From: Prorocentrum cordatum | Lineage: Eukaryota | DNA: 64,000 bases | NCBI GenBank assembly: GCA_963575745.1 | Contig: CAUYUJ010000303.1 | Location: 310,001 to 374,000 of the forward strand | Direction of reading: 5' to 3' | The notes under the pieces: model-generated | What the model was told of the DNA's origin: nothing | The model's input: the letters and a program-made list of their open reading frames with translations, nothing else | Databases searched by the model: none | Translations under genes and position numbers: made by a program | In this document: piece by piece, positions 3,212 through 21,228 of the stretch | Layout: every line of letters begins with the position of its first letter | Numbering within the stretch: the stretch's first letter is position 1

Positions 3212-4752
3212 TTGATATGTTTCGTCACGCGGTGCAGAAGCCACCCGCACTTGTGGATAACGAGGGGGCCGTTCTGCCGGCAGGTGCCCAGAGAAGGGTG
3301 AGGAGGAACGAGAAGGGGAGGAGCACGAGGTTGGTCGTGTCGCGAGGAGTGGCCTGCCGTTGATATTTGCACCGCTTTGGCGGAGCCTGCCATGATGCTG
3401 GTCAGGCCGCGGCAGTTCGGCCGCACTCGAGCACTCGTCCTGTGCTGGTTCGGCCCTGCGCCTGGAGCACGGAGTGCCCAGTCGCACTGCACAGCCGAGC
3501 TGGGCCTTGCCCGCCCACGTCGCGCGTTCGCGAAGCGCTGGAGAGGAACGTTGCCTCTGGACGGCCCGGGGCCGAGCATAGCAGACACGCTCGGGGAGCT
3601 CCTGGCGTGGGCAGTTCCTCGCGCGCAGTGCCGTGTTCGGGTCATCGTCTTGCTCTCGGATGCTCTCAGGGCTCTGGCAGGACCTTGAGGGATCTGCGGC
3701 AGCCCCTCACGGGCGCGGACGCTCTGGACGCCGCTCTCCTCTTTTCGGGTCCGTCCGTGTTCTTTCCCCACGCCCAGGATATGCGTGTGTGTCTCTCCAA
3801 CAGGTGTGTCTCCAATAGGTTCGTCTCCCACACAGCGTTCGGTGCGCTGCAGTGCTGCTATGATGCGACCGAGGGGGATTCCCATAGTGACACCATCATG
3901 TCCCATTGCGGCACCATCACCACCATCATCATCACCATTATCATCAGCAGCGTCATCACCACACTTCGAGGGACGCTCCGCTGCGATGGTAAAGAAGTGC
4001 CATCGCCCAGCGTATCTTGCAGTGGATCTCCCACCACCGCGCAGCTGCCCACCGTCGGTGGTGAAGTTGGAGGATATCCGAGCGTCCTAGCTCGTTGCCG
4101 CTCAAGCTGCTGGTCTATTCTGGTTCGGGGTCGTGAGCCGTCGGCCAGTTGGCGAACTGGACCATAGTCCCCATGCGTTTCCCACAGCTTGGAGAGCTAG
4201 AAGGCTACGCATCGTGGTCACATATTGTCAGCTGTGGCGACGCAGACTCCAGGATTTGCGTTTGCGCGAAAAAAACACCACACTTCGTGGGACGTCGAAT
4301 TGTTTGCACTGTATTGGCCTTTGGGGGAGACGCAAACATGAGTGGATGCTGCAGAGGTGCAGGTAGGAGCTTTTTTCCAGGTACATCTCTTCCGATGTTG
4401 TTGGCTCGCACAGGCGTGCTGCGTTTCATGGAACTGCTGCAAGCAAGCCAAGCGCACAGGGTGTCGAGATGTATCAGTTTGTACATAGATTGTTGTTTCT
4501 CCATGTCCAGACCCGCCGAGCATCCGTTTCTCGCAGGGCGATGGTTCAGTGAATGGGGCGGCAATGTAGCCATTTTCCGCGTCTTGAGACGCGCGGGCAG
4601 GCAGAGATTTTCCTGATGTGTCCACCAGCCAGGGGGTCACATCCCACAGGCGGCTTTCTCCGCGGCAGCGCTGGGCCCAAAATCGCAACATTGGGACGGG
4701 TTGAGTTCACGAGTGGAGTGAGTTAGTGTGTCGGAATGGGTAGGGTGATGCA

Positions 4753-5037
4753 ACTTTAAACGGAGAAGGTTAAAGGCGAGATGTATATCGAGCATGCACC
4801 GCTGCCGTGCCTGGCTCAAGCCGGGCCCGGCGTAATATGTGATTGTGCCTCACCGAGGCGCACGATTCGTATCTGAGATCGGAAAATACCTTTTCCATTG
4901 ACGATGCCTATTCTATCCTTTACTCCAGATCCCATGCTTCGTCTTGCTCTCTTGCTCATGCGATATGAGCCAAAGCTTGGGATATGGGAACGCCTAAGGC
5001 GTAACATATATCTAAGCTTACCAGCGCGATTTCGACT
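4753..5037 (+). repeat. 5' LTR
   Basis: ACTTTAAACGGAG...GATTTCGACT; differs from the 3' LTR at 2 positions by eye. Confidence 0.95.
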
Positions 5038-8000
5038 TGGTAGCGGAGCTGGCTACACTCTCGTGTGGCTGGCTCTCGCTCTAATACCAGTTATCCACGG
5101 CACAACTTGGTGGACTACTACCACGGTGGAATACCATGTTGCGCCGGCTCTGCGAGGAGCGGAGTCAGTCCGCGATCGAGCTAGCGGGGCAACCCGCGAG
5201 CTCGAGACGCTCTCTCTCACTTCACTGCGCCACTACACTCCAGACTTCCACCAGATGCCAATCGGCAACTCGATCGAGAACGTGGTCACCCTGCGGGGCT
5301 ACCCGCAGAGGGGCCACCTGCATCCCATGCCGGTCAGACGCCTCACGGCTACCACGCCCGAGCCTGACAAACCACAGCCTAAACCAATCACCGAAGCCGA
5401 GATGCACATGCACTGGATTAAGATAACTATCTTCGGCATTTTATGGGTGATATTGGGATGTGCTGTGGGCTACATGCGGCAAGGGATGGACGACACGCGT
5501 ACTACCGGCCCTTCATGGGACCCAGCCGGTACTACGCCCTTTCGCGAATACGTTCGCGAAGTACATGCATGGATAAACGCAACGAGCGGCAATATGACGC
5601 CACCTCAGCAAGCTGCAGCACTACAACGTGGCCTTCAAGGCCTTGCTCGTCGCATCGCCATGCAGGTCCCCTCCCAGATCATCAACTATGGTGTTACCGT
5701 CAACGGACAACCAACGGATGCAGTTACTTACATACTGTACCTATTGAGCACCAAATTTGAGAATCTGGAAGAAGAGCGCCAGCTCAACTCTGGCACTGCC
5801 CTTATCGACTTCCGCGTCGAAAGGGGCGAACGAATCGACTCAGTGTTAGCTCGATTCGAGATGGCCCGTGACGAGGCTAACTCTGTTGGCTTTGTCATCC
5901 CCAACTTTCAGATCCTAACGCTGATCCTTTTCAGAGCGTTAGGCGTTGGCGCGTCACGAGCCCAACACCTGCTGGAGCCCTTTAACCATCAGATGCCCAG
6001 GACACAAGCAGACTACGATAGGCTGCTGACCAGGATGAGGAACTACGGGCATGTTGCCGAACGCTCTCCTGGCAACATTGCGGGCATCTTCACAGGGCAT
6101 CACTCACATGCAGGTGTCTACGCCACGACTGCGGGGTCACCCGCTGGTCCTGGCGAGCCAAGTCCCTGGGCTGACTCAGCCGATATGCCCAACGAGGCCA
6201 CTACCCTCTTAGGGCAGACTGGCCAGGCATCAGCAGAGGCAGCGGAGGCGAACGCCTGGTCGAACTACACGCCGGGCGCCGCCTACACTGCAAGCCCGCC
6301 CTCGGGCACAACCCTCTGGGGCCAAGCGGAGTCATCCGCTCAAGGGTCTCAGCCACCCTCCCCGTTTGAATCTGGCACTGACACCGATACCTCATCTGAC
6401 GGTGATCACAATGGCATAGTCTCTGCTGGTAATGACTATCCAGCCGATGACACTCACCTTTCTGAACAACAAAGAGCGGAAGCCGCTTTTATGGCTTATC
6501 GCAAATCAAAACGCCGTTGGAGGCGCTTCATGAAGAAACCGGTCAGAAAAGTGAGACGTGCAGTACGCCGACATTTCAAACGATATGGAAAGGGTCGTGG
6601 CAAAGGGGGTCGCAGACGCCGTATGCATGGTAGGGGTATTACTGCTTTCCTCACGTCCTTAACTGACATAGTTTTTGAAGAAGTTCTTATCGGAGGTAAA
6701 GGTCGGGGTCATAGGCGGACCTCTGGTAAGGGAAAAGGGCGGAGGGGCAACCCTAGAGACGCTTCTGGCAACGTTATGAAGTGTCATACATGCGGTAGTA
6801 CAGAACATTTACGCGATCATTGCCCGGAGGGGAAAGGAAAGGGATCCGTACATTTGGCTCAAAACTCTTTTATGGACGACATAGACTATATTGACTACGA
6901 GTTTTACATCAACCCAGAAGCGGCTCCCGCCGCGGGCTCCTCCACGTACTACGTGATGGCCCGCTACGCTGATGTGACCGTAGCCTTGGAAGAGTACGCG
7001 GTGAACCTCTTCGACGAGTTCCACGGTTGGGACGAGGTCGACGAGACCGCGTTCAATGCTTGGTTCGGTCTTACAGCGGGGCCACCCGCCGGCGACGAGA
7101 TCTCCGAAGCGGAGACCGCCCCGGCGACCGAGGAGGAGCTCGCCGCCGCGCTGGCACCGCAGGTGATTGGCATGCCGTTGCTGCCAGATCCTCCGCGAGC
7201 CGGCTCGGAAGTGGGAGACGCTGATGACGAAATGCGGGGCCATCCCGCTTACTCTGACTCCGAAGAGGACTATAAGGACATGCTCCGAGAGCAGGTCGCA
7301 GAAGCAATCCAGCTCCTGAGTGCGCCAGCATACCAGCAGATAACCATGAACGGTTTACTGTCGCGCCCAGGGGCCGCAATGTTGCGTCCATACCTGGATT
7401 CGGACATGTCGGCACCACAGATGCTGACAGCACTCCAGATTTTAGCGGGGTCACCCGCCGAAGAGGCGCCAGCCGTAACAGCGGGGCCACCCGCTTGGTC
7501 TATGGAGGTATTCATGCAGGGCTGCGACCAAATGGACCTTAACAACCTCACGATGGAGCAGTTAACCGACATCGGGTACTTTAACAGCCCGCATCAGCAC
7601 GTATTCATGGTCCAGGACAGCTCAGAGGACTCGGAGGACAGGCGCTACGCAAAGAAGGACAGACAACCATCGCCACCCCGAGACCCAGAGCACGGTCGCG
7701 AAGACGAAAGGCCCATGGAACGTGGCAGTGCGTCAGCGGGGCCATCCCGCAGGAGGAGCCGTTCAGCTCCACGACGTCCCACACATGATGCATCAGGCTA
7801 CCCGTGCAGCACGGAGCACTCCGTAGGTGTATCCTCTCAGTACGTGCCGGAGTGGTACATCAATTGGTACCCCGGCTACTCGATGGAGGTTATCCGCCAC
7901 TGGTGGTCCAAAGAGTATTGCGCCAAACGGGACGAATCTGGCATGATAATACGTACCAAGGGTGGTAAGACTAAAACGCCAGAGGCTTGGGACCGAAGGA

Positions 8001-8944
8001 CCAAGAAACAGGAGATCATCAACGATCGCAAGACATACAGAAAACAAGTATGTCAATGCGAGCCCTTCAAGGGTCACATGCGCAGCTGTCCAATGGACCG
8101 CCCCTCCAGAAGCCCTCATCATGGTGAGACCCCTTGGAATTGGTCTCACGGAGATGACGCTGGCAACGTCCACGATCCTAATAAAAGGGTTCCTGGAGGA
8201 GGAAAGCGCATCACTGAAGCCGATCGCGTCCCTATGACCGAGGAGGATGCCAATGCGGTCAGGGAAAATTGGGAACAGCTTCCCAGAGACCATCGCCTCA
8301 AGGAATGGAACCGCCGATTCCATGAAGAGGCGGGGTCACCCGCAGAATCCAGCGGAGAAGCGGGGTCACCCGCAGAGCCCAGCGGAGAAGCGGGGTCACC
8401 CGCAGATGCTGCGCCAGCCGCTGGGTCAGCGGACGACGAGTGGATAGCTGTTGCCTCTGTCGCCGGATCCGCCGCCGGTACTGACCAAACCGAACTGAAT
8501 GAAGAATGGGCGGCGGAAGACGGCTCAGAGAATCCATTCCCTGATGGATGCGCCTGCTGGTACTACAGCTCCTCGGCACAGAAATGGTTCTGCACGAGGG
8601 TAATTTGCCGCCATGAAAATGGCAAGTACAAGTTGGCCATAAAGAATAATGCCGACATCGACCAGATGAGGCAGATCATTCATGATCATGGCCAGCCAGA
8701 AGGCCTTCCGAAAGACCCTCCTGGTCCACAGCCAGGCAAGGGCTCTGCGGGGCCACCCTTAAAGCGGCGTCAGCTGCAGCAGCGGGGACACCCGCAGGAC
8801 CAGGAGCCGATTCCTCATCTCCACCTTCTCCTGCGAAGAGGAACCCTTCTAAGAGCCCCGAAGGCACGCCGGGGCGTGTTAAGGCCAGAGGGATCGCCAA
8901 GGAAGAGGACCCTGAGCAGGAAGAGCCTGCCGGCCCGTCCGTGA
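4898..8944 (+). CDS. Retrotransposon gag-like polyprotein segment with CCHC zinc knuckle
   Basis: CHTCGSTEHLRDHC (CX2CX4HX4C) at 6782-6823 after a basic RG-rich tract; gag-like GPSWDP...FREYVREVHAW near 5505. The true start is probably downstream of the LTR/PBS, and a frameshift is likely near 8760. Confidence 0.8.
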   Translation: MTMPILSFTPDPMLRLALLLMRYEPKLGIWERLRRNIYLSLPARFRLGSGAGYTLVWLALALIPVIHGTTWWTTTTVEYHVAPALRGAESVRDRASGATRELETLSLTSLRHYTPDFHQMPIGNSIENVVTLRGYPQRGHLHPMPVRRLTATTPEPDKPQPKPITEAEMHMHWIKITIFGILWVILGCAVGYMRQGMDDTRTTGPSWDPAGTTPFREYVREVHAWINATSGNMTPPQQAAALQRGLQGLARRIAMQVPSQIINYGVTVNGQPTDAVTYILYLLSTKFENLEEERQLNSGTALIDFRVERGERIDSVLARFEMARDEANSVGFVIPNFQILTLILFRALGVGASRAQHLLEPFNHQMPRTQADYDRLLTRMRNYGHVAERSPGNIAGIFTGHHSHAGVYATTAGSPAGPGEPSPWADSADMPNEATTLLGQTGQASAEAAEANAWSNYTPGAAYTASPPSGTTLWGQAESSAQGSQPPSPFESGTDTDTSSDGDHNGIVSAGNDYPADDTHLSEQQRAEAAFMAYRKSKRRWRRFMKKPVRKVRRAVRRHFKRYGKGRGKGGRRRRMHGRGITAFLTSLTDIVFEEVLIGGKGRGHRRTSGKGKGRRGNPRDASGNVMKCHTCGSTEHLRDHCPEGKGKGSVHLAQNSFMDDIDYIDYEFYINPEAAPAAGSSTYYVMARYADVTVALEEYAVNLFDEFHGWDEVDETAFNAWFGLTAGPPAGDEISEAETAPATEEELAAALAPQVIGMPLLPDPPRAGSEVGDADDEMRGHPAYSDSEEDYKDMLREQVAEAIQLLSAPAYQQITMNGLLSRPGAAMLRPYLDSDMSAPQMLTALQILAGSPAEEAPAVTAGPPAWSMEVFMQGCDQMDLNNLTMEQLTDIGYFNSPHQHVFMVQDSSEDSEDRRYAKKDRQPSPPRDPEHGREDERPMERGSASAGPSRRRSRSAPRRPTHDASGYPCSTEHSVGVSSQYVPEWYINWYPGYSMEVIRHWWSKEYCAKRDESGMIIRTKGGKTKTPEAWDRRTKKQEIINDRKTYRKQVCQCEPFKGHMRSCPMDRPSRSPHHGETPWNWSHGDDAGNVHDPNKRVPGGGKRITEADRVPMTEEDANAVRENWEQLPRDHRLKEWNRRFHEEAGSPAESSGEAGSPAEPSGEAGSPADAAPAAGSADDEWIAVASVAGSAAGTDQTELNEEWAAEDGSENPFPDGCACWYYSSSAQKWFCTRVICRHENGKYKLAIKNNADIDQMRQIIHDHGQPEGLPKDPPGPQPGKGSAGPPLKRRQLQQRGHPQDQEPIPHLHLLLRRGTLLRAPKARRGVLRPEGSPRKRTLSRKSLPARP
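5038..5049 (+). promoter_or_regulatory. Primer-binding site TGGTAGCGGAGC (initiator tRNA-Met-like)
   Basis: Begins with TGG (complement of CCA) immediately after the LTR and resembles known iMet PBS sequences (TGGTATCAGAGC, TGGTAGCAGAG). Confidence 0.8.
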
Positions 8945-10419
8945 CGGAGAGGAGGAAGGCTTTCGCTGGACCATCAACCCCGATGCCACCAGCTGCTCAA
9001 GGCGACGTTAAGGAAGAAGATCGTGATCAGCCTAAGGCAGCTTTCCGAGGTGGCTGGGCTCCAACTCTGCATCAGCCGCGCCTTGCACCACGACCAGGCT
9101 CGGCACGCATGAAAGCACAGCCGAAGCCCGAGGCTGGGATGAGGTCGGTGCGGGCAGAGGCAGTCGCCAAGGCTAAGGAGGACAAGGGCCCTGCGGGGCC
9201 ACCCGCTAAAGCGGCGCCAGCCGCAGCAGCGGGGACACCCGCAGAAGGCACTCTCTCAAGAGAAGAACGCTTTAGAGCCCTCAAGGAATTTGGTGACCAA
9301 CAGAAACTAGCCGACGATGCGGTGGCAGCCCAAGATCACCAGCACTCTGGTGCAAGATCATCCACTGGAGCTGCCTCGGCAGCCGCAAGCTTTGCGGGGC
9401 CACCCGTTAAAGCGGCGCCAGCCGCAGTAGCGGGGCCACCCGTTAAAGCGGCGCCAGCCGCAGCAGCGGGGTCACCCGCAAGTTGGCAACCAGTGATGTC
9501 TGTCCTCAGGAACATCCCTCTGGGAGCCATTGAATATTGGCAAGGCATTGAAGGCAAAGGCCCAAAACGCACCATAAACCCACGAGTCACTCGAGATGAT
9601 ACAGATCGATACGAGGTCATTAATTGTCCTGTTCGTCGTAACTTCGAGTGCCGTAACAACTGGGAACGTGAACAACAAACCGTGGGAAATATGCTGCGTG
9701 ATAGGCCGCCATTGCGAGTCGCGCAGCACAGGGCAGAGCTCATGAAGGTCATGGAGAGGTTCGGCACGGATCCGACTCTGCCGCGCGACGGGCAAATGAC
9801 CAAGGTGTCAATATGGTTCTCTACAGCCCTACGCCAGAGTCCGTATTGGAAGGATGGATTCAGCCGACACTTCGAAAAGATTAGCACTTTCGATCCATGC
9901 GATGGCTGGGTTGTTGTTGACGATTTGCTGACAAACTGGACTGAAAATGATCAGTGGAAAGGCTATCGTGAAATGCACAAGGTGCTGATCAAGGGCAGGC
10001 CCCACACGTCATACGTGTATTGGGTGCTGCTAAACTGCTGTGAGATGATTGATAACCACGGCATGCAGAAGGGCAGGCTCCAGATGAAGTGCGTTGAAGA
10101 CAGTATGCTGCTGCCTCCCAGGTTCCGACCAACGGCACGCAGGCCACAGTACTTCATCAGAGCCACTAACGGCCACAGCAGTCCAGGCATCCACTGTCCC
10201 GAATCGCTTTATAAGCCGATCACAACATGGATGAAAGAACCAGACGACCCAGTATATTTCATCCACGGGACACAGTGGGAATATGTCAAGGACATCCTTG
10301 CTAATGGCCTTTCATGCCTCGCACAGGACAACCCTAAAAGACAGGGGGGGGCGCCAATTTGTACACGGCTGCCCCTACCTTCTGGGCGACCCGAGGATTC
10401 AATCGGGCATCCGTCCTGA
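8941..10419 (+). CDS. Polyprotein segment containing the N-terminal two-thirds of a Tpt1/KptA domain
   Basis: STALRQ...DGWVVVDDLL...KGRL...IRATNGHS...FIHGT...ILANGLS. Confidence 0.8.
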   Translation: MTERRKAFAGPSTPMPPAAQGDVKEEDRDQPKAAFRGGWAPTLHQPRLAPRPGSARMKAQPKPEAGMRSVRAEAVAKAKEDKGPAGPPAKAAPAAAAGTPAEGTLSREERFRALKEFGDQQKLADDAVAAQDHQHSGARSSTGAASAAASFAGPPVKAAPAAVAGPPVKAAPAAAAGSPASWQPVMSVLRNIPLGAIEYWQGIEGKGPKRTINPRVTRDDTDRYEVINCPVRRNFECRNNWEREQQTVGNMLRDRPPLRVAQHRAELMKVMERFGTDPTLPRDGQMTKVSIWFSTALRQSPYWKDGFSRHFEKISTFDPCDGWVVVDDLLTNWTENDQWKGYREMHKVLIKGRPHTSYVYWVLLNCCEMIDNHGMQKGRLQMKCVEDSMLLPPRFRPTARRPQYFIRATNGHSSPGIHCPESLYKPITTWMKEPDDPVYFIHGTQWEYVKDILANGLSCLAQDNPKRQGGAPICTRLPLPSGRPEDSIGHPS

Positions 10420-10560
10420 CTCGGAGGTGCTCATATTCTGCAGCATCAACAAGATGCTGTCCAGTGGCTTTACCCTATGGAGGTCAGCAAATGACATCGT
10501 CATGACACGGGGCCACGACGGCCGTATACCGCCCGATCATATCCTCCAGATTGTGAGCAT
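9800..10560 (+). CDS. TPT1: RNA 2'-phosphotransferase (Tpt1/KptA) domain, split by a frameshift near the G8 run 10344-10351
   Basis: Family motifs occur in order: LR(H>Q), DGWV, KxR, IRAxxGHS, HGT, GLS. The next frame continues RQFVH, SGIRPDSEVLIF, RSANDIVMTRGHDGRIPPDHI. Confidence 0.85.
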
Positions 10561-13500
10561 TGCGAAATATCGGGTCGGTGAAGCCTGGAGCAATCCGCTG
10601 GCTTATGACAAGTCGCGGAGGCGGGGCCAACCCGCGGACAGGATTCGCACCGATGACTACCTGCCACTTAAATTATGTGACAGAACTCTGCGTCTGATGG
10701 AAGATCACGCCATGTACCTAAAGGGCTGGTCTAAGACGGACGGTCGTCCATTTAACTTGATCATGACCGAACAAGATGTTGCTCCACGACCGTACCTCAC
10801 ACAGACAGTCCTCATGATAAGTGCCCAGGAAGACGAGGTCATGCCTGAAGCGGGGCCACCCGCAGGTGCGGGGACACCCGCGGCAGACACCCCGGATGGT
10901 TCATGGCAGCAAGTGGTCACACCAGTAGCGACGGTAGCATCTCCTTGGAGGCCGGACCAGCAGACATGGGTCCAGGCCCTCAACAGCTACTTGTCACCAG
11001 CCGACGTTTCTGGACTGACCGATCAGCTATACCGTGCTGACCCGTGGGCAGTGCATACAGGTATCCAAGATGCACGGCAGAGGAACCTGCGTACCCTTGC
11101 GGGGCCACCAGGCGTCCTAGGACCACAGCCACAGCGCCCTCCGCAGCAGGCTGGAGGCGCGAGGTTTGTCCCTATGGGCGGCTCCGATGGTGGCTCGCCG
11201 TTCCGGACTCCGCCGTCTGAGACGAGCGAGAACAGCTTGTGGCAAAGACTCCAGGCGATTCGCGGAAATCCAGCACTCGCGGCAGCACTCCAAGCAACCA
11301 CTCCCTTTGGCACTCCGAGGGGTAGTGAAGGAGGAGCAGCTGCGGGGTCACCCGCTGGGCGAACGCCTGCGGAGCCACCCGCACATGCGGGGCCACCCGC
11401 TGACGGACAGCAAGGTTCAGACTACGAACGTCGGGCAGCCAACCTAAGAGCACAGGCTACTTTTCTGCAGCAACAAGCTGATAGAGTGCCCAGCCTGTTG
11501 CGGAACCGCAACATAGATGTTACGAATCATGGCGACTTTCGGCCTCTCTGGAGCTGGACTTCTGAAGATGCTCCAAATGCTGATCCCACGAATCCATATC
11601 GACAGGTGTTTATTCCAGGAATAGCATCACACCCGATATATGGATGGGACAATCACGGTCCAGCAGAGGCGCAGGCCATGGACGCGCCGATGTACCCGGA
11701 GTACTACGCGCAGATGAATAACACCCCTATGATTGCGGGGCCACCTGCGAACGAATACACTCGGAATCTAGCCAATGAGATGTTTCGTTTGCAGTTTACA
11801 CGAGCGGTCGATGCGCAGTCTATGCCGCACTACGCCTACATGCCCACGCCGACGGACCCCGAGACCGTAGTTCAGCCAGCTGGTCTCGCGGTGCCAGCCG
11901 CTATGGGCAGCATGCCAGACTACATCCGCGACGTGCACAACACGCAGCAAGCGATACTGGCATCTAGGCAGCAGGCTCGGGACAACACTAGGCTGCGCCA
12001 ACAACGCGCGATCCAGAGAAGGATTGAGCGCGAGACCCAAGCGGGGACACCCGCAGAAGCGGGGCCACCCGCTGAACGGCCAGACAGACGGCCGCCACCG
12101 ACGCCATATCGGGAGGGCGAAACCACTTTCGAGCGCCAAGCTCGGACTCGCCCTGACGTGCCTGCTCCAGTCATTTCAGACTACAACTTCACACAGTGCC
12201 CAATCTGCATGGACAACTACGAGATGGGCACTACAGTGTGGAGACTGGCGTGTGGGCACTTCTTTCACGATATATGCTGGATCGTTGCACAGCAGCACGT
12301 CCGCAATCAGCGGCCAGGTGCGCCGAATGAGGCCCCCTGCGCTGTATGTCGTGGGCCGGGCATAGTTATAGCACACTTCCCGTATGCTGGACAGCGCGAC
12401 GCTGAATCAGAACAAGCGCGCCAGCAGGAAAGGTACGCGGCAGATGCCCGGGAAATGCGTCGGCCACGTGAAGCAGTGGAGGCACTGGAGGCTCGAGCCG
12501 CACAATCGGCGGAGCCATCCGCACGTGCCCCAGCTGCACAGGCATACCCCTGGCCAGCGCCAGAGCAAGGCATTCAGATGCCAATCCTGCCTACGCTTCG
12601 AGCGCAGGAGCCCCCAGCTGCGGGGCCACCCGCTGAAGCGGCTCCCGCCGCACAAGCGGGGCCACCCGCTGAAGCGGCTCCCGCCGCACAAGCGGGGCCA
12701 CCCGCAAATGGACCTCCAAATCCAGGTTTCCTGAGGACAATGGAGGCCAACATCAGGCGGAGTGGCAGGAGCGGAGGCGGGACTCGATGGCCAACTGGAT
12801 CAGCCAGGACCTCGCGAGTGGCAAGCCCGGTCAGCGCCAGGAGCCGGGCAAGCGCTGAGAGCGCAGAGGCAGCCCAGTTCCATACCACATTCATGATCGA
12901 TACAGAGGGGCTGACCTACGCACGTGACGACACGGACACGCTGCCACCAGGAGGTGAATGGATGTCCACGCTATCTGCGAATTATTGGGTCCTTGAGCAG
13001 GAACCAATTACCGTGGAGGAGCGCCGCCAGTATGAGCAGATGTGGTGCACCGAGCTGACCATGAGTCAATGGGTTCTTGAACAACGCCTGTTGAAGGGTA
13101 CACTCGGATCGCAGATCACGTACCACACCAATGACCATGGGACAATCGCTCTGGCAGCGCGCAATGGGACATTCTTTCCTGACGAAGATGGTATGCCCTG
13201 CATCTCGTTCATGCTGGACATTGGTTCCAATGTGAATATCATTGGATCCAACACGGCGCGAACCTTCCAGGAGATTATGGCCAGGTTCAACTACCGACCT
13301 GCCATATGCACCCTGAGCAAGACCCTCTACATCAATGGTGTTGGTGAGGGCGCTGCGATATGTCGGAAGATGGGCAACTTCACGATCGGGGTACAATATG
13401 CCAATGAGGCGAGCCCCCGTATTGAGGAGTATGCCTCCAACATCGCAGAAGGCTCGGGTGCCAATCTCCCGGCCATCTGGGGCCTAGGAGCCATGGAGGC

Positions 13501-14239
13501 ACGTGACACGATCATCGTGCTGAAGCCAGGCTACCAGAAGGTTATCTTCCCCAGCGGTGACTACACCCTGAAGCTGGGAAGAGGCGCCAAGGTCCTGAAG
13601 GCGAAGAAAACTCCCTCGGGACATCTCGCGATTCCCTGCGGTTTGTATGACGGGGCTAAAAGCCAGACGGCCACGAACACCTTCACAATCCGCAGCAGTC
13701 GAGATGGCTATACCGAGACGGAGAACGAAGAGGACCCCGTCAGTGCGGGGTCACCCGCCGAAGCAAGTGCGGGGCCACCCGCTGAAGCAAGTGCGGGGCC
13801 ACCCGCTGAAGCAACAGCGGGGCCACCCGCGACGGGACAGTCTATGACCGTCACGACCGATACGTACATTGTCGAGCCGTACATCGACGAGCAGCTCCTG
13901 GAAGACACGACCCGTTTGATCGTGGACAGGACGCTGAACAGCTGGTGGGAGGGCCAACAGTGTCCCGAAGGGACCTGGCCACATATGAAGGATGCCCTGA
14001 AGTCTAAGATCTTCTGGGCAGTCCAGGAGGCGGTGAATAAATGGTCGCCTGAGGACCAAGCGGGGCCACCCGCGTCACCGCCACCACCACCAAGCTACAC
14101 GGGCGGAGGTTCGTCGGACTCTGCGGGGCCAACCCGCGTGGAGATCGTTGGCGTGGCCACACCAGCGACTCCTGCGGAGCCATCCGCTAACAGCATGCCT
14201 CCGAGTCAGACGGCAACGTGGTCACACGACCGCCGCTGA
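10283..14239 (+). CDS. Polyprotein segment: Tpt1 C-terminus, low-complexity linker, RING-H2 finger, aspartic protease
   Basis: RING CPIC..LACGHFFHDIC..CAVCR at 12197-12352; retropepsin-like FMLDIGSNVNIIG near 13205-13245 with downstream PAIWG. Confidence 0.8.
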   Translation: MSRTSLLMAFHASHRTTLKDRGGRQFVHGCPYLLGDPRIQSGIRPDSEVLIFCSINKMLSSGFTLWRSANDIVMTRGHDGRIPPDHILQIVSIAKYRVGEAWSNPLAYDKSRRRGQPADRIRTDDYLPLKLCDRTLRLMEDHAMYLKGWSKTDGRPFNLIMTEQDVAPRPYLTQTVLMISAQEDEVMPEAGPPAGAGTPAADTPDGSWQQVVTPVATVASPWRPDQQTWVQALNSYLSPADVSGLTDQLYRADPWAVHTGIQDARQRNLRTLAGPPGVLGPQPQRPPQQAGGARFVPMGGSDGGSPFRTPPSETSENSLWQRLQAIRGNPALAAALQATTPFGTPRGSEGGAAAGSPAGRTPAEPPAHAGPPADGQQGSDYERRAANLRAQATFLQQQADRVPSLLRNRNIDVTNHGDFRPLWSWTSEDAPNADPTNPYRQVFIPGIASHPIYGWDNHGPAEAQAMDAPMYPEYYAQMNNTPMIAGPPANEYTRNLANEMFRLQFTRAVDAQSMPHYAYMPTPTDPETVVQPAGLAVPAAMGSMPDYIRDVHNTQQAILASRQQARDNTRLRQQRAIQRRIERETQAGTPAEAGPPAERPDRRPPPTPYREGETTFERQARTRPDVPAPVISDYNFTQCPICMDNYEMGTTVWRLACGHFFHDICWIVAQQHVRNQRPGAPNEAPCAVCRGPGIVIAHFPYAGQRDAESEQARQQERYAADAREMRRPREAVEALEARAAQSAEPSARAPAAQAYPWPAPEQGIQMPILPTLRAQEPPAAGPPAEAAPAAQAGPPAEAAPAAQAGPPANGPPNPGFLRTMEANIRRSGRSGGGTRWPTGSARTSRVASPVSARSRASAESAEAAQFHTTFMIDTEGLTYARDDTDTLPPGGEWMSTLSANYWVLEQEPITVEERRQYEQMWCTELTMSQWVLEQRLLKGTLGSQITYHTNDHGTIALAARNGTFFPDEDGMPCISFMLDIGSNVNIIGSNTARTFQEIMARFNYRPAICTLSKTLYINGVGEGAAICRKMGNFTIGVQYANEASPRIEEYASNIAEGSGANLPAIWGLGAMEARDTIIVLKPGYQKVIFPSGDYTLKLGRGAKVLKAKKTPSGHLAIPCGLYDGAKSQTATNTFTIRSSRDGYTETENEEDPVSAGSPAEASAGPPAEASAGPPAEATAGPPATGQSMTVTTDTYIVEPYIDEQLLEDTTRLIVDRTLNSWWEGQQCPEGTWPHMKDALKSKIFWAVQEAVNKWSPEDQAGPPASPPPPPSYTGGGSSDSAGPTRVEIVGVATPATPAEPSANSMPPSQTATWSHDRR

Positions 14240-14440
14240 CGGGGGCAGGCGGGCGCGCCGGCGGCGCTCGCTTGCGAAGAGAAGCCGAATACCGGCCTCC
14301 TCGCTACATACGTTGGCCGCGCTGAGGCCCGAGAGGAAAAATATCATTCAAAATGTCTTGTCATCGAAGATATTCGCACAGCTTGCGCTGAACTCCGAAC
14401 CCGTGGATATATATGCGACCGGATTACCCATAATGAGGTA

Positions 14441-17400
14441 ATGACTTCAACTGGAACACAGTATTTGGGAAATTTGTTGGCAGGAGACTACAATATGTTG
14501 TGGGTGGCCACACCCTCTGATTGGTACGTTCGTACTCCAGGAAAGAGGGCGGGACCACACTATCAACGTATACAAAATCTCCTGATCAAAGCGCGTGCTC
14601 TGAGGATGCAGATTGTTATCCTGGGGCCACCCGGGTATTTCTGGAAACAGGGTCCGATCAAAGATGTTATCGAAGATTTGAAGCTAAGCATTATACGAAT
14701 GAGACTCTGTCATTTCGGTATCAAGTTTGACCGCTCCAGTAAATATCCCAGTGGTTCTTATATACAAGTTGCTACATCTTGTCCTCATATACCGATAAAC
14801 TTATGGAGATGTACTTGTGGCTCACACAAAGAGCATGATTTGGATTGGTATGGCCAAGATCAGCAACGTGCCGAGTTTCGGCATAAAACTTTGGCTATCA
14901 TTATTGCACGCTTCCTTGATCAACTCAATAAAGCCAACATGATCAGGAATGAGCGGAGTGCGGTACACCTCAGTGTGTGTACTCGCGTTGACAAAAAGGT
15001 AAGACACTACGTCCCATGCCCACAAAAGGGCCCTCAATGGGACCATGTTGTTCGTAGATTCACGACCGACCTGGACACGAATAAGATCGTTCAAGATATC
15101 AGAATCCAGGATCAGCCGACTGGGTACAATCATGTAGCTCCATTGCCTGATGGGGTTACAAACATCAGTACTCGGTTATACTGGGAACCTCCGGCTCCAG
15201 TTCTTCACGGCGACGGTGAGTCGCGAAGGCCACGCCCAAAGCGTGTGACGATCGTCGATGACGATCGATCTCCTCCCCCTTCGATTGAGCGTTGCCAAAC
15301 GCGACCCACCTACTTTCCTGAAATTCCGTCACTTCCTGACTTAACAGCGGATTCCTCCGCAGCGGATCTCTCCGCGGAAACTGCGTTGCCCACTGATGCC
15401 AGGATAAAACAGAAAGAAAAGCAGAAAGCTGACGAAGAGGCTGGCATCAAACCAAAGAAAATCCCGAAGAAAGTGGAAGACGGCAACGACGACTGTGGAG
15501 AGGACCTCAAAGGGCTTGACTGCTCCACATATTTCAACGACGTTCCTCTTGACGACTCGGACTCGGACAGCGAATCAGAGGACATCTTCATGATGTTACC
15601 GGCGGGGCAACCCGCTGACTCACATGCTGATGTCTTCTCGATGGTCCAGTCATTATGCTACGGCAGAAACAATCAAGTGGACATGCTTGAATTATGTGGG
15701 GGCAAGGGTGGTATATCCATATTAGCCTTCAAGAGGGGACTCTCGTCAGGCGGGAACCTTGACAAGATATCTATGGTTGACCTTGGAAACTCGGAAGTAC
15801 AAAGAGCAGTCCTCCACTACCTCAAGACTTGCTTTGTCAAGATCACGATTCTGCAGCCAAGCTGCAGAACTACTGGACTTCCTTCATACTTCAATGCACA
15901 GGTCAATCATGATACGTGGCTTAAACACCACAAAGAGGACCTGCCTCACATCACGTTCTGTGGAACAGTCGCTCTACTACAAGACGACCTAAGACGTTTC
16001 TTTCTTAGGGAACAACCAATGGGCACGTGGGTGGATGAGATCCAGCCATGGAAGGAACTGGCACAACGCAAGGTCACTTGCCAAACGATTATTGATCAAT
16101 GCACGACTGGTCTCAAAGATTCGTTTGGACAATATATTCGCAAGCCAACACAGATGATGGCAAACAAAGAAGAGTTGTTGGCACCTTTCAGAGGCAAGCG
16201 TTGTCCAGGTAATCATGTGCACGCCAATGCTTGCAATAAAGAATTAGCAAGGGCGGCACAGTATACTTGCAGAATGCAGTCGCTGATCGTTGACGTGGTG
16301 CAAATCGCCAAAGATCTGTTTGCTTACGGTCGCGACCCATTCGCGAATCGTGAACGCAGCTATGCGTCCGTAACAAACAGTGCTGGCTACGACTTGGACG
16401 ACACAACAATCCAGAGACACCCAAACGGAGAAATCCGACGACCACCACCTGGCGGTCTTGGGCGCCCTGGCTGTGTGGACAACAATTACAAGCAATCACC
16501 AAAGCACAGCAGGGATCCGAAAATGTGTCGGTGGTATGATGTTGAACCATACTATTGGGACTGTCCAAGCTGTAAGAAGGAATATCAGAAGAGTAATCCT
16601 CACCACACCAAGATATCTGGCCAATGCAGATTCGCCGAAAAATGGAAGCTGCCAGATAACTTTGGTCAGCCGCGCCCGGCGGGGCAAGCAGCTCCTGCGG
16701 CGCCGGCCGCGGAAGCGGCTCCAGCCGCAGAAGCGGCGCCAGCCGCAAAAGCGGCGCCGGCCGCGAGAGCGCGCATACGCGCGCCTAGGCCGCCACGGCC
16801 CGGTGAGGGCGATCCAACCGCAGGCGCCAGCAGTCATGACATCACCAGAGCCGAAGGGGCTAATGGTGGCAACACTGGCGCTGGCAGCTCTGACGATCAC
16901 CGTAGACTGCCGCAAGTGGCAGCAAGGCGCGGACGCATGGAAGGAGGTGATCCTCCACCGCCGCCGCAGCCTCCTGTAGAGCCGAGGCCAAGGCCAAGGC
17001 TTCCTGATTGGACTCGTTTCGATGTTCAGCTCAGCCTTCAAAACCTGCGCAGCTTTGACCCAGCTGTAGTGCAGCGAGAACTCCGCAAGCTTCACTTGAG
17101 ATGGTTTCATGCCAAGGAACCAAAGATGCGGATGATTCTAGCTAAGGTTGGTCTGGGCGAAACCCGTTTGAGTCTGATTAAGGGCATTTGCGACTCATGT
17201 AGAGAATGTCGTGCCTGGGACAAACCAGGCAACACAGTGATGCCATCTGTGTCACTGCCAGGACATTTCAACGAGGAAGTCGAATGTGCTCTTTTCTTTT
17301 ACAAACAGGAACATATTGTTTTTCACATCATCGACCGTTGTATTCGTTGGGCAGCTGGTACAGAGATCCCCGATAAGACTATGCACACTGTTCTCGATGC

Positions 17401-19132
17401 CTATCACACAACTTGGATGCAGCATGGCCCTGCCAAAGTCTTATACTCCGACGGGGAAGGAGCACTGAATAACGATACAGCAAAGGCCATCCTTAAATCC
17501 AAGGGAACAGAGCTTCGTATCCGAGCGCGTGGCCAACACGCCACGACTATCGAAGCTAGGAACGGCATCCTGCGACACCTCATACACGTGATGGGAGAAG
17601 AATTGAATAGATTGAATATTCCTCTGAATTTCACTCGTCTTTTACATGGAGCCATGTTTGCCAGCAGTGCATTTACCTTCTACAACGGAGCTTCTCAGTA
17701 TAATGCGTTATATGGCAGACAACCAGCTATGCTTCCCGATTTCCCTGTCTTGGATCATGATCAGTCTGCTGAATCATCAGATCACTCAAGGGAGGAGACA
17801 ATCAGGAGGGTTAGTCTGGAGGCAATCACGCAGGCCACTGCGGTTGCCAAGACAAACAGGGCTCTTCGTACGAAGACTACTGCTACGGGTGAATTTCACT
17901 ACCGAGAGGGAGATCTCGTGGACTATCATCGCCCGACCACCACGAAAGATGACTGGGGTGGATGGAGTGGTCCATACCCGGTCATCCGCAACGAACCTGA
18001 CCGGGGTCAAGTCATCGTGAAGGTCGGCAGTCGCGAAGTGCGAGTACAGTATCCTGACACACGACATACGCTGTACATCGAAGCACTGATGGTCCGCGAG
18101 ATAGGATCGGACAATACGGCCCTTCGGACAGTATTGGCCTTTATTGCCGGTCTGTCAGCGGGGAAGCCCGCCATGACTTTTGGATACTTACCAGCGAAAC
18201 AGGGCCGGCTGCAGATGACTGCTGCGAGCCGGCTTTCGCCTAAAGTGCACCTGGCTCTTCAGTATCTCATTCGCAACTATTTTCGCATTGAAAACGTTGT
18301 TGCCGTACGACTTGCCAAGAGCCTGACTAAGTTGCCTGCTGCACCCTATGCAGACAGCTGTACACTAGTGCACTATGATAATGATGTGACCCCTGGCTTT
18401 CATTATTATGAAGCTGATGGCACCGCCTTGAACATCTACGACATCACAGGATCTACACACTCACGTATCATCCAGTGTCTCAAATCCAAGAAGCCGCCTG
18501 CTGGATTCGACCGAGACCTCACTAAATTTGAGGAACTCGCTGATGGTCCACCACCAAGCGAGTCACCTCCAGCAGCTGCTCCTGAGCAGCCTCCTGCGGA
18601 GAATGGTGGTCGGCTCCCGACCATCATAGAGGAAACAGAAGAAGATCTGGATGCCTTTGTCTTAAAGTCGTGGTATGCTGAACTGATGGATGACAGAACA
18701 CTCTTTGAAGCTGACACAGAAGAAGTCATGCATACAGTTCCGACATACATGACAGACACACAGTGTGTGTTAGTCTCTACGACCTGTGAAGATGTGCAAG
18801 GCCACTTGCCGGAGCGGGGTCACCCGCCAGGATACGACATGGACACCTCTTACTACGTTCCTTTGTGCCCACGGATCCGGACAACAAATATGATCTGGAT
18901 TCCGACGAGCACGGGAAGTACATCGAGCTCTGCTTCACAGCAGACATGTCCAAAGTCGTCCTGTCCGAGCAGCAACACCGATTGCTGGATGACAGCAGCG
19001 TCACAACTATGCGAGTATACGTTAGTGCTGCCTCCAAACGTGCCGTGGTCGTCAAGGAAGACGATCTACTCACGAAGGCCGACATTCAAGCGAATCCGGT
19101 CAAAGTTTCCAAAGCCCTATACACATAATTGA
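14441..19132 (+). CDS. Polyprotein segment: C5-DNA-methyltransferase-like domain and integrase
   Basis: MTase-like motifs LELCGGKGG, QPSC, REQP, DQC..G..RKPT at about 15670-16300. Integrase HLRWFH..CDSCREC zinc finger, YSDGEG, IEARN and SH3-like GDLVDY..WSGP at about 17080-18060. Frameshift likely near 18800. Confidence 0.85.
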   Translation: MTSTGTQYLGNLLAGDYNMLWVATPSDWYVRTPGKRAGPHYQRIQNLLIKARALRMQIVILGPPGYFWKQGPIKDVIEDLKLSIIRMRLCHFGIKFDRSSKYPSGSYIQVATSCPHIPINLWRCTCGSHKEHDLDWYGQDQQRAEFRHKTLAIIIARFLDQLNKANMIRNERSAVHLSVCTRVDKKVRHYVPCPQKGPQWDHVVRRFTTDLDTNKIVQDIRIQDQPTGYNHVAPLPDGVTNISTRLYWEPPAPVLHGDGESRRPRPKRVTIVDDDRSPPPSIERCQTRPTYFPEIPSLPDLTADSSAADLSAETALPTDARIKQKEKQKADEEAGIKPKKIPKKVEDGNDDCGEDLKGLDCSTYFNDVPLDDSDSDSESEDIFMMLPAGQPADSHADVFSMVQSLCYGRNNQVDMLELCGGKGGISILAFKRGLSSGGNLDKISMVDLGNSEVQRAVLHYLKTCFVKITILQPSCRTTGLPSYFNAQVNHDTWLKHHKEDLPHITFCGTVALLQDDLRRFFLREQPMGTWVDEIQPWKELAQRKVTCQTIIDQCTTGLKDSFGQYIRKPTQMMANKEELLAPFRGKRCPGNHVHANACNKELARAAQYTCRMQSLIVDVVQIAKDLFAYGRDPFANRERSYASVTNSAGYDLDDTTIQRHPNGEIRRPPPGGLGRPGCVDNNYKQSPKHSRDPKMCRWYDVEPYYWDCPSCKKEYQKSNPHHTKISGQCRFAEKWKLPDNFGQPRPAGQAAPAAPAAEAAPAAEAAPAAKAAPAARARIRAPRPPRPGEGDPTAGASSHDITRAEGANGGNTGAGSSDDHRRLPQVAARRGRMEGGDPPPPPQPPVEPRPRPRLPDWTRFDVQLSLQNLRSFDPAVVQRELRKLHLRWFHAKEPKMRMILAKVGLGETRLSLIKGICDSCRECRAWDKPGNTVMPSVSLPGHFNEEVECALFFYKQEHIVFHIIDRCIRWAAGTEIPDKTMHTVLDAYHTTWMQHGPAKVLYSDGEGALNNDTAKAILKSKGTELRIRARGQHATTIEARNGILRHLIHVMGEELNRLNIPLNFTRLLHGAMFASSAFTFYNGASQYNALYGRQPAMLPDFPVLDHDQSAESSDHSREETIRRVSLEAITQATAVAKTNRALRTKTTATGEFHYREGDLVDYHRPTTTKDDWGGWSGPYPVIRNEPDRGQVIVKVGSREVRVQYPDTRHTLYIEALMVREIGSDNTALRTVLAFIAGLSAGKPAMTFGYLPAKQGRLQMTAASRLSPKVHLALQYLIRNYFRIENVVAVRLAKSLTKLPAAPYADSCTLVHYDNDVTPGFHYYEADGTALNIYDITGSTHSRIIQCLKSKKPPAGFDRDLTKFEELADGPPPSESPPAAAPEQPPAENGGRLPTIIEETEEDLDAFVLKSWYAELMDDRTLFEADTEEVMHTVPTYMTDTQCVLVSTTCEDVQGHLPERGHPPGYDMDTSYYVPLCPRIRTTNMIWIPTSTGSTSSSASQQTCPKSSCPSSNTDCWMTAASQLCEYTLVLPPNVPWSSRKTIYSRRPTFKRIRSKFPKPYTHN

Positions 19133-20835
19133 AGACTTGGCTTGACAACAAATGCTTCCAGATGACTGACTTGAACAAAGCGTCGAACACCATGACTTCA
19201 CGCTATGTATACAAATGGAAGTTTGTCAAGAACGAGAAGGGCGACATGGAACGGACGATCAGGTTACGCTTAGTACTCCGTGGCTTCATGGACATTGAAG
19301 CCTTCGATGTCGAAACCTTCTCTGGCACAGCAAGGAGGTCAAACCAGAGACTGCTCGCAAGTTCTGCTGCATGCAGCAAAGCTTGGATCATCGCTTCCCT
19401 GGACATCAACATGGCTTTCTTAAAGGGACTGACCTATAGTGAGCTCGCCGCGGCAACGGGTGAGAAAGAGCGTGTGGTGTGCTTCACACTACCTCCTGGG
19501 TCAGCAGCTGTCCTTCGTACACTGCCAGGCTTTGAGTCACATGACGAATCAAAGCACTGTCTTCGGCGTCTGAAGCCGGGGACGGGCACGAAGGATGCTC
19601 CCAGGGCATTCTCGTTGAAGCTCAGGTCCATCACTCGGAGCTTTGGACTACAGCCTACGTCATACGACGAAGAATTCGAGATGAGCCCAAACCTCTTGAC
19701 AGCCAAACACGTTGATGACATTAATATGACTGGGAAGGAAGATGCTATTGACAAGTATGTCAAGTGTGTTGAAGATACGTTTGGAAAGTGCAAACTGAAC
19801 AAGCACACATACACAAACTGTGCCGTTCGGTACAACAAGACCGATGATGGGAGCGTCACTCTCGATCAGGACGAATACATCAAACAGCTTCGTCCTATCA
19901 CACATCCAGAGCTCACAGGCGCTGATCCTGAGAGTAAAGCGACAAAGACGATTTCTGATATGTTCGTCAGTCTTCGCGACGCTCTAGCCTATGCGTTGAT
20001 TACGCAGGTATGGCTGATGGTCTATGTTGTCTCACTACAACGTATCCAGGAACCGACAAACATCCAGGTACGACGACTAAACGCGGTTACCAGGAAATTG
20101 CAGGCAGGTCCGAAGAAGATCGTATATCAAGCTATGACTCCAACAGGAGAAGTCGACCTGCATAGCGACTCTGGCTATCGTCGTCTCAACGGAGACGAAG
20201 ACGACGAAGTCAAAGGCTATGGTATCCGCGGGGCTAACCTGCTGAGGCGTGGCCACACGCAAGCGGGGAAACCCGTCGTGCACCTGGTGGACGCATACTG
20301 CAAGTCTCATCGACTGCACGTGCGTTCGAGCTACTCTGCGGAAACACTGGCAGCAGCCCACAACTTGGAAGACTGCTACCCGACCATTGTAACGCTCCAC
20401 GAGCTACACTCGGGACCATTGACCCGCACACAGTTAAAGAACATATTGGAAATGGGTGGTCTATGTATCAAAGTCACTCTGACTATTGCTGCCGAGTCCG
20501 TCTTCAAGTCTTTGTCTAGCAAAGATCTGAAGAAGCCCACAGAATGTACTCTGCTTGGGCACATCAGCTGGATCCGCCAGATGATGGAGCGCGGAATCGT
20601 TGAAAGCGTTCAATGGTGTGACACGCGGGATATGACTGCCGATGGTCATACCAAAGGTAGTATTGACCGCGCGTTGCTCCTACAAGTAATGGCCGGCCAG
20701 CAATCCTTCAAGCACGAGCTGAAGAAACATACACCGTATAGGGCGGGCAGGTCGTCTCAAGACGGTCCTGCCTCCCGAGCTAGCGGGGAAACCCGCATGC
20801 AGGTGCGCTTTAGTAGCGAGGAAACTCGCCGGTAG
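19129..20835 (+). CDS. Copia-type reverse transcriptase and RNase H
   Basis: SRYVYKWK, RLVLRGF, LDINMAFL, GTKDAPRAF, HVDD (19708-19719); RNase H SDS, SSYSAE, MTADGHTK. The coding sequence probably joins upstream through the frame of 18865..19128. Confidence 0.92.
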   Translation: MKTWLDNKCFQMTDLNKASNTMTSRYVYKWKFVKNEKGDMERTIRLRLVLRGFMDIEAFDVETFSGTARRSNQRLLASSAACSKAWIIASLDINMAFLKGLTYSELAAATGEKERVVCFTLPPGSAAVLRTLPGFESHDESKHCLRRLKPGTGTKDAPRAFSLKLRSITRSFGLQPTSYDEEFEMSPNLLTAKHVDDINMTGKEDAIDKYVKCVEDTFGKCKLNKHTYTNCAVRYNKTDDGSVTLDQDEYIKQLRPITHPELTGADPESKATKTISDMFVSLRDALAYALITQVWLMVYVVSLQRIQEPTNIQVRRLNAVTRKLQAGPKKIVYQAMTPTGEVDLHSDSGYRRLNGDEDDEVKGYGIRGANLLRRGHTQAGKPVVHLVDAYCKSHRLHVRSSYSAETLAAAHNLEDCYPTIVTLHELHSGPLTRTQLKNILEMGGLCIKVTLTIAAESVFKSLSSKDLKKPTECTLLGHISWIRQMMERGIVESVQWCDTRDMTADGHTKGSIDRALLLQVMAGQQSFKHELKKHTPYRAGRSSQDGPASRASGETRMQVRFSSEETRR

Positions 20836-20943
20836 CGAGGCTACTCGCGCGCCCTTACCTTGTAGGCAGCCGCTGTTGCCTAGTACTGTTTTTTTTTCCG
20901 CGTAATGTAGTAATGCGGTGCTCGCTCGTCTCCCCCCCCTCCG

Positions 20944-21228
20944 ACTTTAAACGGAGAAGGTTAAAGGCGAGATGTATATCGAGCATGCACCGCTGCCGTG
21001 CCTGGCTCAAGCCGGGCCCGGCCTAATATGTGATTGTGCCTCACCGAGGCGCACGATTCGTATCTGAGATCGGAAAATACCTTTTCCATTGACGATGCCT
21101 ATTCTATCCTTTACTCCAGATCCCATGCTTCGTCTTGCTCTCTTGCTCATGCGATATGAGCCAAAGCCTGGGATATGGGAACGCCTAAGGCGTAACATAT
21201 ATCTAAGCTTACCAGCGCGATTTCGACT
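20944..21228 (+). repeat. 3' LTR
   Basis: Direct repeat of 4753-5037. Confidence 0.95.

Follow-up and report, generated by a model that had tools for sequence, protein, structure and literature searches.

The stretch of DNA described here, called the window below, is 64,000 nucleotides (64 kb) from the dinoflagellate Prorocentrum cordatum (assembly GCA_963575745.1, contig CAUYUJ010000303.1, positions 310,001 to 374,000 of the forward strand); coordinates are counted from its first letter. Within it lies a long terminal repeat (LTR) retrotransposon of 16.5 kb (4753-21228, + strand), which carries in its first open reading frame (ORF1), between gag and protease, a true member of the Tpt1/KptA fold family. 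This domain (9802-10560, +) is made up of an N-terminal RNA lobe and a C-terminal NAD+ lobe, with a +1 frameshift inside. An earlier reading made from the letters alone, the sequence-only reading, had placed a Tpt1/KptA RNA 2'-phosphotransferase between gag and protease of a Copia element, over an interval that matches the one given here, and the profile match, the predicted fold, the LTR, target-site and primer-site anatomy and the order of domains all bear this out.

The element is bounded by direct repeats (family D14, 99%), the 5' LTR at 4753-5037 (285 bp, +) and the 3' LTR at 20944-21228 (+), which in pairwise alignment are identical at 283 of 285 positions, with two differences. On either side is a 5 bp target-site duplication, ATGCA, read directly at 4748-4752 and 21229-21233 (+), and the element is a young insertion. 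Adjoining the 5' LTR is a putative primer-binding site, TGGTAGCGGAGCTGG (5038-5052, +), complementary to a tRNA 3' end in ...CCA; the same string, as KLGSGAG, is kept at the corresponding place in L001, a related contig described below. A tRNA scan found no tRNA genes in the window, leaving none to match against this tRNA-type site. Upstream of the 3' LTR no purine-rich tract was found, and 20880-20943 holds a T9 run together with a stretch of pyrimidines that ends in C8.

Between the LTRs, long + strand frames extend over 4877-20835 (stop-to-stop ORF map, standard code). The reverse transcriptase (19147-19929, +) is of Copia type, with an HVDD motif and a match to Pfam RVT_2 (PF07727, E 7.2e-12, 45.8 bits against a cut-off of 31.6). 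In the case of the integrase (17093-17566, +), the assignment comes mainly from the HHCC finger and the D, D-35-E core, read directly, the Pfam rve match being weak and under its cut-off (E 0.013, 16.1 bits). Because these motifs precede RVT_2, the order is the Copia-type one of protease, integrase, reverse transcriptase and RNase H. The RNase H end of pol (20197-20760, +) was recognised from motifs read directly and from 83.5% amino acid identity to the 5' end of the L001 contig, and no Pfam family matched this region. The element is a Ty1/copia-type LTR retrotransposon. Searches with tblastn using five element ORFs found no other copies elsewhere in the 64 kb window, there were no Rfam matches on the element, and a PDB sequence search with ORF2 and the reverse transcriptase ORF gave nothing meaningful.

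The Tpt1 domain is divided between two overlapping ORFs, and each part matches the Pfam family PTS_2-RNA (PF01885): ORF 8686-10419 over profile positions 67-124 (30.2 bits, E 5.6e-7) and ORF 10235-14239 over positions 123-177 (23.2 bits, E 8.1e-5). When the peptide is read through a run of eight G residues (G8, 10344-10351) with a one-base step, the resulting 275 residues (P0001) give a single match of 61.6 bits (E 1.3e-16, cut-off 26), which upholds the family assignment of the sequence-only reading on the frame-corrected peptide. Among PDB sequences, P0001 matches human and mouse TRPT1 (7yw3, 7yw2) and yeast Tpt1. The AlphaFold2 model of the domain, built with 34 aligned sequences, has a predicted local distance difference test score (pLDDT) of 83.9 and a predicted template modelling (TM) score of 0.73. 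All 22 Foldseek matches of this predicted model to PDB structures at E<=0.001 are Tpt1/KptA proteins, so the assignment stands on structure as well, with TM scores by target that range over 0.39-0.72 and alignments of about 120-260 columns, 7yw2 (E 4.4e-13, TM by target 0.68) and 6e3a (0.72) being the best. Since most of the alignments span about 220-260 columns, both lobes are matched in most structures, the RNA lobe being of the winged-helix kind and the NAD+ lobe of the ADP-ribosyltransferase type.

The Tpt1 motifs occur in the order that had been read from the letters, inside the LTR-bounded element: LRQ (9829-9837), KGR (10069-10077), IRA-NGHS, HGT and GRQFVH (from 10352). Two of them would contact NAD+, namely HGT within IHGTQW (10258-10278) and S-G-x-R within QSGIRPD (10400-10420), as placed by alignment only; these roles are described in PMC6333775. 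The essential tetrad of Tpt1 is Arg-His-Arg-Arg, which in solved Tpt1 grips the 2'- and 3'-phosphates of the junction (PMC6333775). Alignment with canonical Tpt1s places its Arg-His pair at the RH of LRH and its other two arginines in K-x-R and R-x-[HF]-V-H. The yeast numbering served as a cross-check of this assignment. The sequence-only reading had counted three retained catalytic arginines, in LR, KGR and IRA. The first two stand; the Arg of IRA is conserved and lies outside the tetrad, the third tetrad Arg being that of GRQFVH, a residue just past the frameshift that the window copy retains. This copy therefore has Arg-Gln-Arg-Arg in place of the essential tetrad.

Relatives were sought by a word-indexed protein search. 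The P. cordatum gene models include pieces 95-96% identical to the window copy, and relatives at 42-54% identity come from the ENA and JGI metagenomes and from the EukProt set labelled Pyramimonas sp. CCMP1952. This label is that of a green alga, and the set contains seven element-type Tpt1 fragments (P0009, P0012, P0013, P0015, P0017, P0022, P0024), which would indicate either that the host range is wider or that the set is contaminated or mislabelled. A metagenome scan with a 5-row alignment gave 140 pattern matches and three confirmed loci (L001, L002, L003), and a scan of viral contigs with the same alignment gave 64 pattern matches, none of which was confirmed.

The sequence-only reading had itself raised the possibility that sibling copies lack the domain, and this is not what was found: divergent relatives carry it in frame and with the same neighbours. 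P0003 (1627 amino acids) has PF01885 followed by a RING finger, in the same order as the window. L001, a JGI contig of 8780 bp, begins with the 3' end of pol, followed by an LTR and primer-binding site and then by a single open frame of 2653 amino acids, in which a gag-like region, zinc knuckle, conserved pre-domain, Tpt1, RING and protease motif follow one another uninterrupted. In these unbroken relatives PF01885 is matched over positions 5-177 of the profile (L001, 61.8 bits, E 1.1e-16; L002, 62.1 bits, E about 1e-16).

The tetrad, together with the HGT and SG-R motifs, is retained in nearly all intact relatives. Of eight more distant relatives in which the site is covered, seven keep the RH pair, as do L001, L002 and L003; K-x-R is at least 90% conserved in 34 aligned rows; and 11 of the 12 rows that extend over GRQF[VI]H retain its Arg. 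Between the window and P0003, which are 45% identical, no stretch of ORF1 is as well conserved as the Tpt1 C-lobe (10186-10501), which reaches 50-62% per 50 residues; the RING has 46%, the protease 50% and the linkers 18-30%. The ratio of nonsynonymous to synonymous divergence (omega, Nei-Gojobori), from the single pair of metagenome contigs L001 and L002, is 0.116 for Tpt1 (241 codons, synonymous divergence 0.92), as against 0.54 in the pre-domain and 0.79 in the linker upstream. These comparisons show that purifying selection has maintained the Tpt1 domain in a diverged lineage of such elements, one seen both in marine metagenomes and in P. cordatum-like dinoflagellate DNA.

An exhaustive phmmer search with one of the relatives (P0006) yielded 395 representatives at E<=0.001, of which 60 had E<=1e-10. 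The top matches are short element-type fragments and the remainder canonical Tpt1s, and among the 58 longest matches the PF01885 scores are 119-510 bits for canonical and 20-51 bits for element-type proteins. A tree was made from 57 of 76 domain matches, those that cover the C-lobe; the 19 partial rows were dropped, and none of the rows was named. The 11 element rows form one clade, with a Shimodaira-Hasegawa-like approximate likelihood ratio (SH-aLRT) of 91, or 97 with one long-branch fragment included, with a long stem between them and the 45 canonical rows. The TRPT1 of Symbiodinium natans falls in one of the canonical clusters, P0125. Constraining this cluster to group with the element clade, a grouping chosen after the tree had been seen, was not rejected (approximately unbiased test, p 0.70), and gave a log-likelihood 14.7 better than the quick free search. 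The element Tpt1s would thus be compatible with a dinoflagellate host origin. Relatives in frame, an omega of 0.12 and a clade of their own mark this as an old, selected acquisition rather than a one-off capture; the neutral capture from the host that the sequence-only reading had allowed for is at odds with that omega and with a clade that is not nested as a recent host copy. Among the canonical matches, P0038 and P0123 include one metagenome protein of 776 amino acids with four tandem Tpt1 domains and one of 409 amino acids that fuses Tpt1 to an RNase_T exonuclease domain.

The window copy differs from the rest of the family at two points. The first is the Arg-Gln that replaces the catalytic Arg-His (LRQ for LRH, 9832-9837, +, with the Gln at 9835-9837). 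The sequence-only reading had noted this Gln, and was right for the window copy; as a trait of the family it does not hold, as LRH is present in all six P. cordatum sibling proteins that cover the site, and the change is private to the window copy or its subfamily. The second is the +1 frameshift at the G8 run (10344-10351, +), which was followed in contigs from four public runs (X5, X12, X2, X1) aligned on the element. One base is absent at 10344, giving G7, in 4/4 contigs of X5, 1/1 of X12 and 2/2 of X2, so that the unbroken G7 frame is the norm. In X1 the base is absent in three contigs (138 of 358 depth) and G8 is kept in about 61% of the depth, which argues that G8 is shared by a subfamily and is not merely an assembly slip. 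Programmed +1 frameshifting of the Ty1 kind at G8 was set aside, since relatives and most other copies have G7 and one continuous frame. The window copy is thus a damaged member of an otherwise intact family. The frame also switches between ORFs 4877-8944 and 8686-10419 (overlap 8686-8944), and there is another change of frame near 19130 (18868-19132), where other copies have an extra T at 18868.

ORF1 as a whole is ordered gag, zinc knuckle, pre-domain, Tpt1, RING and protease. The gag-like region (5030-8347, +, in the frame of ORF 4877-8944) was delimited by tblastn with the L001 ORF, to which it is 49% identical over 5030-7180 and 28% over 7238-8347. Within it, the CX2CX4HX4C zinc knuckle (6782-6823, +) was read directly, the Pfam zf-CCHC match having an E of only 0.17. 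Directly upstream of Tpt1 is the conserved pre-domain (9517-9801, +), aligned with P0003, P0006 and L001 and matching no Pfam family. The RING finger (12197-12349, +) is matched by zf-RING_11, zf-C3HC4_2 and zf-RING_2, all above cut-off (E 7e-7 to 3e-6). A RING between Tpt1 and protease is itself unusual for retrotransposons, and it is kept alongside Tpt1 in P0003 and L001. The putative aspartic-protease active site, LDIGSNVNIIG (13214-13246, +), is identified on motif grounds only; the motif is conserved in P0003 and L001 as LMDIGSNVNIVG, and no Pfam protease family matched the region. ORF1 (gag-Tpt1-RING-protease) is closed by an in-frame TGA (14237-14239, +), beyond which ORF2 (DNMT-like domain, integrase, reverse transcriptase and RNase H; DNMT, DNA C5-methyltransferase) continues in the same frame. 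A lone in-frame stop between two ORFs of the same frame suggests stop-codon readthrough; short indels around it (14191-14242) vary among other copies.

ORF2 has two domains ahead of the integrase, X1 and X2, both conserved in five relatives. The predicted fold of X1 (14333-14959, +) resembles that of DNA C5-methyltransferases (DNMTs). The AlphaFold2 model of 800 residues of ORF2 is of low confidence overall (pLDDT 44), with local values of about 60-80 that include X1 and low confidence at X2. Residues 32-240 of this model align to M.HhaI with a Z of 10.8 and DNMTs fill all of the top 21 rows (VIA-align), and the best Foldseek match of X1 is DNMT2 (E 6.5e-4). The Pfam family DNA_methylase was not matched in any of six aligned ORF2 members. 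X2 (15602-16189, +), defined by the alignment of the five relatives, contains ELCGGKGG (15686-15712) and QPSCRTTG (15851-15877), which by eye we take to resemble DNMT motifs I and IV; a protein-atlas lead for X2 reaches only 0.84.

Dispersed through the element is a 14-nucleotide motif, GCGGGG-NN-ACCCGC, with 30 copies, all on the + strand and all inside the element (5184-20783; for example at 7076, 9193, 12620, 13769 and 15602). None was found on the - strand or elsewhere in the 64 kb window. The element ORFs contain 28 in-frame A-G-x-P-A peptides, made up of 25 exact 14-mers and three near-variants. At these sites the codons are GCG in 28/28, GGG in 27/28 and CCC in 25/28, whereas in the rest of the element they account for 24%, 15% and 17% of their respective families. 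Just beyond the 14-mer, the next synonymous site is free to vary, and codons that are fixed beside a free synonymous site indicate a constraint at the nucleotide level. Six instances are predicted to fold as a hairpin with a 5 bp stem and a 4-nucleotide loop (-8.6 to -14.3 kcal/mol). A-G-x-P-A sites with the variant GC[GA]GG...CCTGC (AGQPA) number 17 in L001 and five in L003. All of the motif sites lie in linkers between domains, and the motif may act as a signal in RNA, as a protease site or in both ways. A deletion form lacking 1754 bases (7438-9193) ends at two copies of the motif, and is seen in contigs of two runs.

In the remainder of the window there are satellite arrays at 36192-42700, with a 10 bp repeat of the GCATGCATTG type at 36.2 kb, units of about 215 bp at 36.4-41.0 kb, and short repeats at 41.1-42.7 kb with units of 9-15 bp and 10-15 bp. 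GC skew is strongly positive over 28-42 kb, reaching 0.44. Two pairs of direct duplications (49448-52140 and 59862-63372), about 1.85 kb apart, are 87-93% identical. Assembly gaps of 100 N are present at 32545-32644 and 48005-48104.

With regard to function, the account favoured here, albeit tentatively, is that Tpt1 uses NAD+ to remove 2'-phosphates from the RNA template or primer, so unblocking reverse transcription. The roles put forward in the sequence-only reading (action on the tRNA primer, capping of ends, counter-defence) are likewise conjectural. Because it sits in ORF1 before the protease, the domain of intact copies would be made with Gag, at Gag-level stoichiometry within the polyprotein, and might be carried into the virus-like particle. 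There it would remove 2'-phosphates from RNA in an NAD+-dependent manner, the target being the genomic template or the tRNA primer, for example after cleavage and rejoining by a ligase of the tRNA-ligase type. An internal 2'-phosphate stalls reverse transcriptases, and the benefit would be that it no longer blocks cDNA synthesis. This chemistry is favoured because the family keeps the whole Arg-His-Arg-Arg tetrad.

Several points weigh against this account. That 2'-phosphates are present on element RNA at all is an assumption which it has to make. The element Tpt1s score far from canonical ones (25-62 against 119-510 bits), and a changed substrate or a loss of activity is possible. The window copy is itself probably inactive, judging from its coverage of only positions 67-177 of the profile, the Gln for His and the broken frame, and the broken G8 form makes up the greater part of the depth in X1. 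The selection estimate comes from one pair of contigs, the frameshifted L003 having been excluded. Finally, in three P. cordatum gene models (P0002, P0008, P0014) the N-lobe runs straight into the protease region, which would make them either deletion derivatives or gene-model splices.

Somewhat unlikely, though the nearest competitor to the removal of 2'-phosphates, is that the domain ADP-ribosylates the 5'-phosphate ends of RNA or single-stranded DNA and so caps fragments of element RNA or the ends of cDNA, shielding them from exonucleases or sensing; the mark might then be read or extended by the RING next to the domain. A link between RING fingers and ADP-ribose is known from the DELTEX ligases, and the window shares its RING neighbour with P0003 and L001. 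In both sequence and fold the best matches are mouse and human TRPT1 (7yw2, 7yw3; E 4e-13, 4e-12), and 5'-end ADP-ribosylation is performed by TRPT1 and KptA (PMC10415124, PMC12678800, PMC6582358). The kept tetrad, however, is the one that grips an internal 2'-PO4/3'-PO4 junction, and it fits either chemistry without preference for this one.

A role in counter-defence, in which the domain would repair host or primer tRNAs cut by anticodon nucleases or modify host targets together with the RING as an E3 ligase, is less likely. For phage KptA, acting with RNA ligases, the repair of tRNAs cut by anticodon nucleases has been proposed. KptA does occur in phage RNA-repair sets and in the polyproteins of a few positive-strand RNA viruses (PMC9503650). 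In the element ORFs, however, Pfam found no RNA ligase, 2H, Macro or Nudix family that could act as its partner, and the Gag-level position in ORF1 suggests action in the particle and not in the cytoplasm at large.

It is more doubtful still that the domain is a non-catalytic relic, with catalysis lost and the fold retained within Gag to bind RNA or NAD or as a structural part. Pfam scores that are low beside those of canonical Tpt1, the long stem branch, the Gln and broken frame of the window copy, and an Ile in place of the third Arg in the transcript-like relative P0009 would all accord with such a relic. They are opposed by the retention of the tetrad, HGT and SG-R in nearly all intact relatives, by the omega of 0.12, and by the C-lobe being the best-conserved part of ORF1. 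That the domain is an artefact, from a host TRPT1 gene or pseudogene inside or beside the element or from a chimeric assembly, is highly improbable: the window does have two 100-N gaps and the element several frame breaks, but the gaps (at 32545 and 48005) lie well away from the element, independent metagenome contigs and proteins have the domain in the same ORF beside the same neighbours, 30/30 depth bins of the element are covered in 4/4 runs, and the element Tpt1s group in a single clade separate from canonical ones.

The removal of 2'-phosphates can be set within a wider picture, which is possible but doubtful, in which a giant Copia lineage has built its own particle-borne kit for modifying nucleic acids, such that 2'-phosphate removal or ADP-ribosyl marking of ends is required for reverse transcription in dinoflagellates. 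It is equally conjectural that the kit would comprise Tpt1 and a RING E3 on the Gag side, DNMT-like modules on the Pol side, and some 30 RNA hairpins in linker codons. If this were so, 2'-phosphorylated RNA would be a natural barrier to retroelements. More generally, accessory enzymes that become fixed in retrotransposons reveal the host pathways that limit their replication, and a selected, Gag-side Tpt1 in a dinoflagellate Copia that is highly repeated points to the chemistry of RNA 2'-phosphates or of ADP-ribose as one such limit.

Compared with Ty1/copia elements (Pseudoviridae), the dinoflagellate element shares the LTRs, the 5 bp target-site duplication, a putative tRNA-type primer-binding site, the order of protease, integrase, reverse transcriptase and RNase H, and RVT_2. 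It differs in its size, about three times the usual, in an ORF1 that holds Tpt1 and RING and terminates after the protease at an in-frame TGA, in an ORF2 with about 900 extra residues ahead of the integrase, and in having no purine-rich tract before the 3' LTR.

With cellular Tpt1/TRPT1/KptA (PF01885), it is the above-cut-off match to the profile hidden Markov model, the predicted two-lobe fold, the tetrad of the family, K-x-R, HGT and SG-R that are shared. The cellular form is free-standing, whereas that of the element is embedded in a retrotransposon polyprotein and is very divergent (about 62 against 119-510 bits), with inserts in a longer N-lobe and a motif, GRQF[VI]HGCPYLPGD, that is specific to the family; in the window copy the Gln for the tetrad His and the frameshift come in addition. 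A Tpt1 subfamily resident in a Copia lineage is new within the literature searched, in which no paper on Tpt1 in a retrotransposon was found, subscription journals being outside its coverage. A distinct and easily recognised subfamily is thereby added to a family whose functions beyond tRNA splicing are not yet settled.

The closest arrangement in viruses is that of KptA, described as rare in eukaryotic viruses in a survey of viral NAD+/ADP-ribose systems, and embedded in the polyproteins of Beihai picorna-like virus as well as Botrylloides leachii nidovirus, with no retroelement listed in the available part of that survey (PMC9503650). In common with these is a KptA-family domain inside the polyprotein of an RNA-templated replicator; they are, however, animal RNA viruses, and here the host is a dinoflagellate LTR retrotransposon with the domain in a Gag-side ORF beside a RING.

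The capture of host enzymes has a precedent in other retrotransposons. DNMTs have been captured by LINE (long interspersed nuclear element) and DIRS elements of dinoflagellates and by a charophyte Gypsy element (SymbioLINE-Dnmt, SymbioDIRS-Dnmt3, KnitGypsy-Dnmt3), and are under purifying selection with Ka/Ks <0.2 (PMC5890265). The present element resembles them in having a host-type enzyme fixed in its coding region, in purifying selection (omega 0.12 here) and in occurring in dinoflagellates, and differs from them both in the class of enzyme, a Tpt1 of the ADP-ribosyltransferase fold, and in the class of element, Copia. The Symbiodinium Copia elements are stated in that report to be without any DNMT domain (PMC5890265), while the Copia described here has a DNMT-like predicted fold in ORF2. 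Were a Copia element to carry a DNMT-like module, this would add to the DNMT captures reported for dinoflagellate LINE and DIRS elements, as the Tpt1 domain extends the capture of nucleic-acid-modifying enzymes by dinoflagellate retrotransposons to a new class of enzyme and to Copia.

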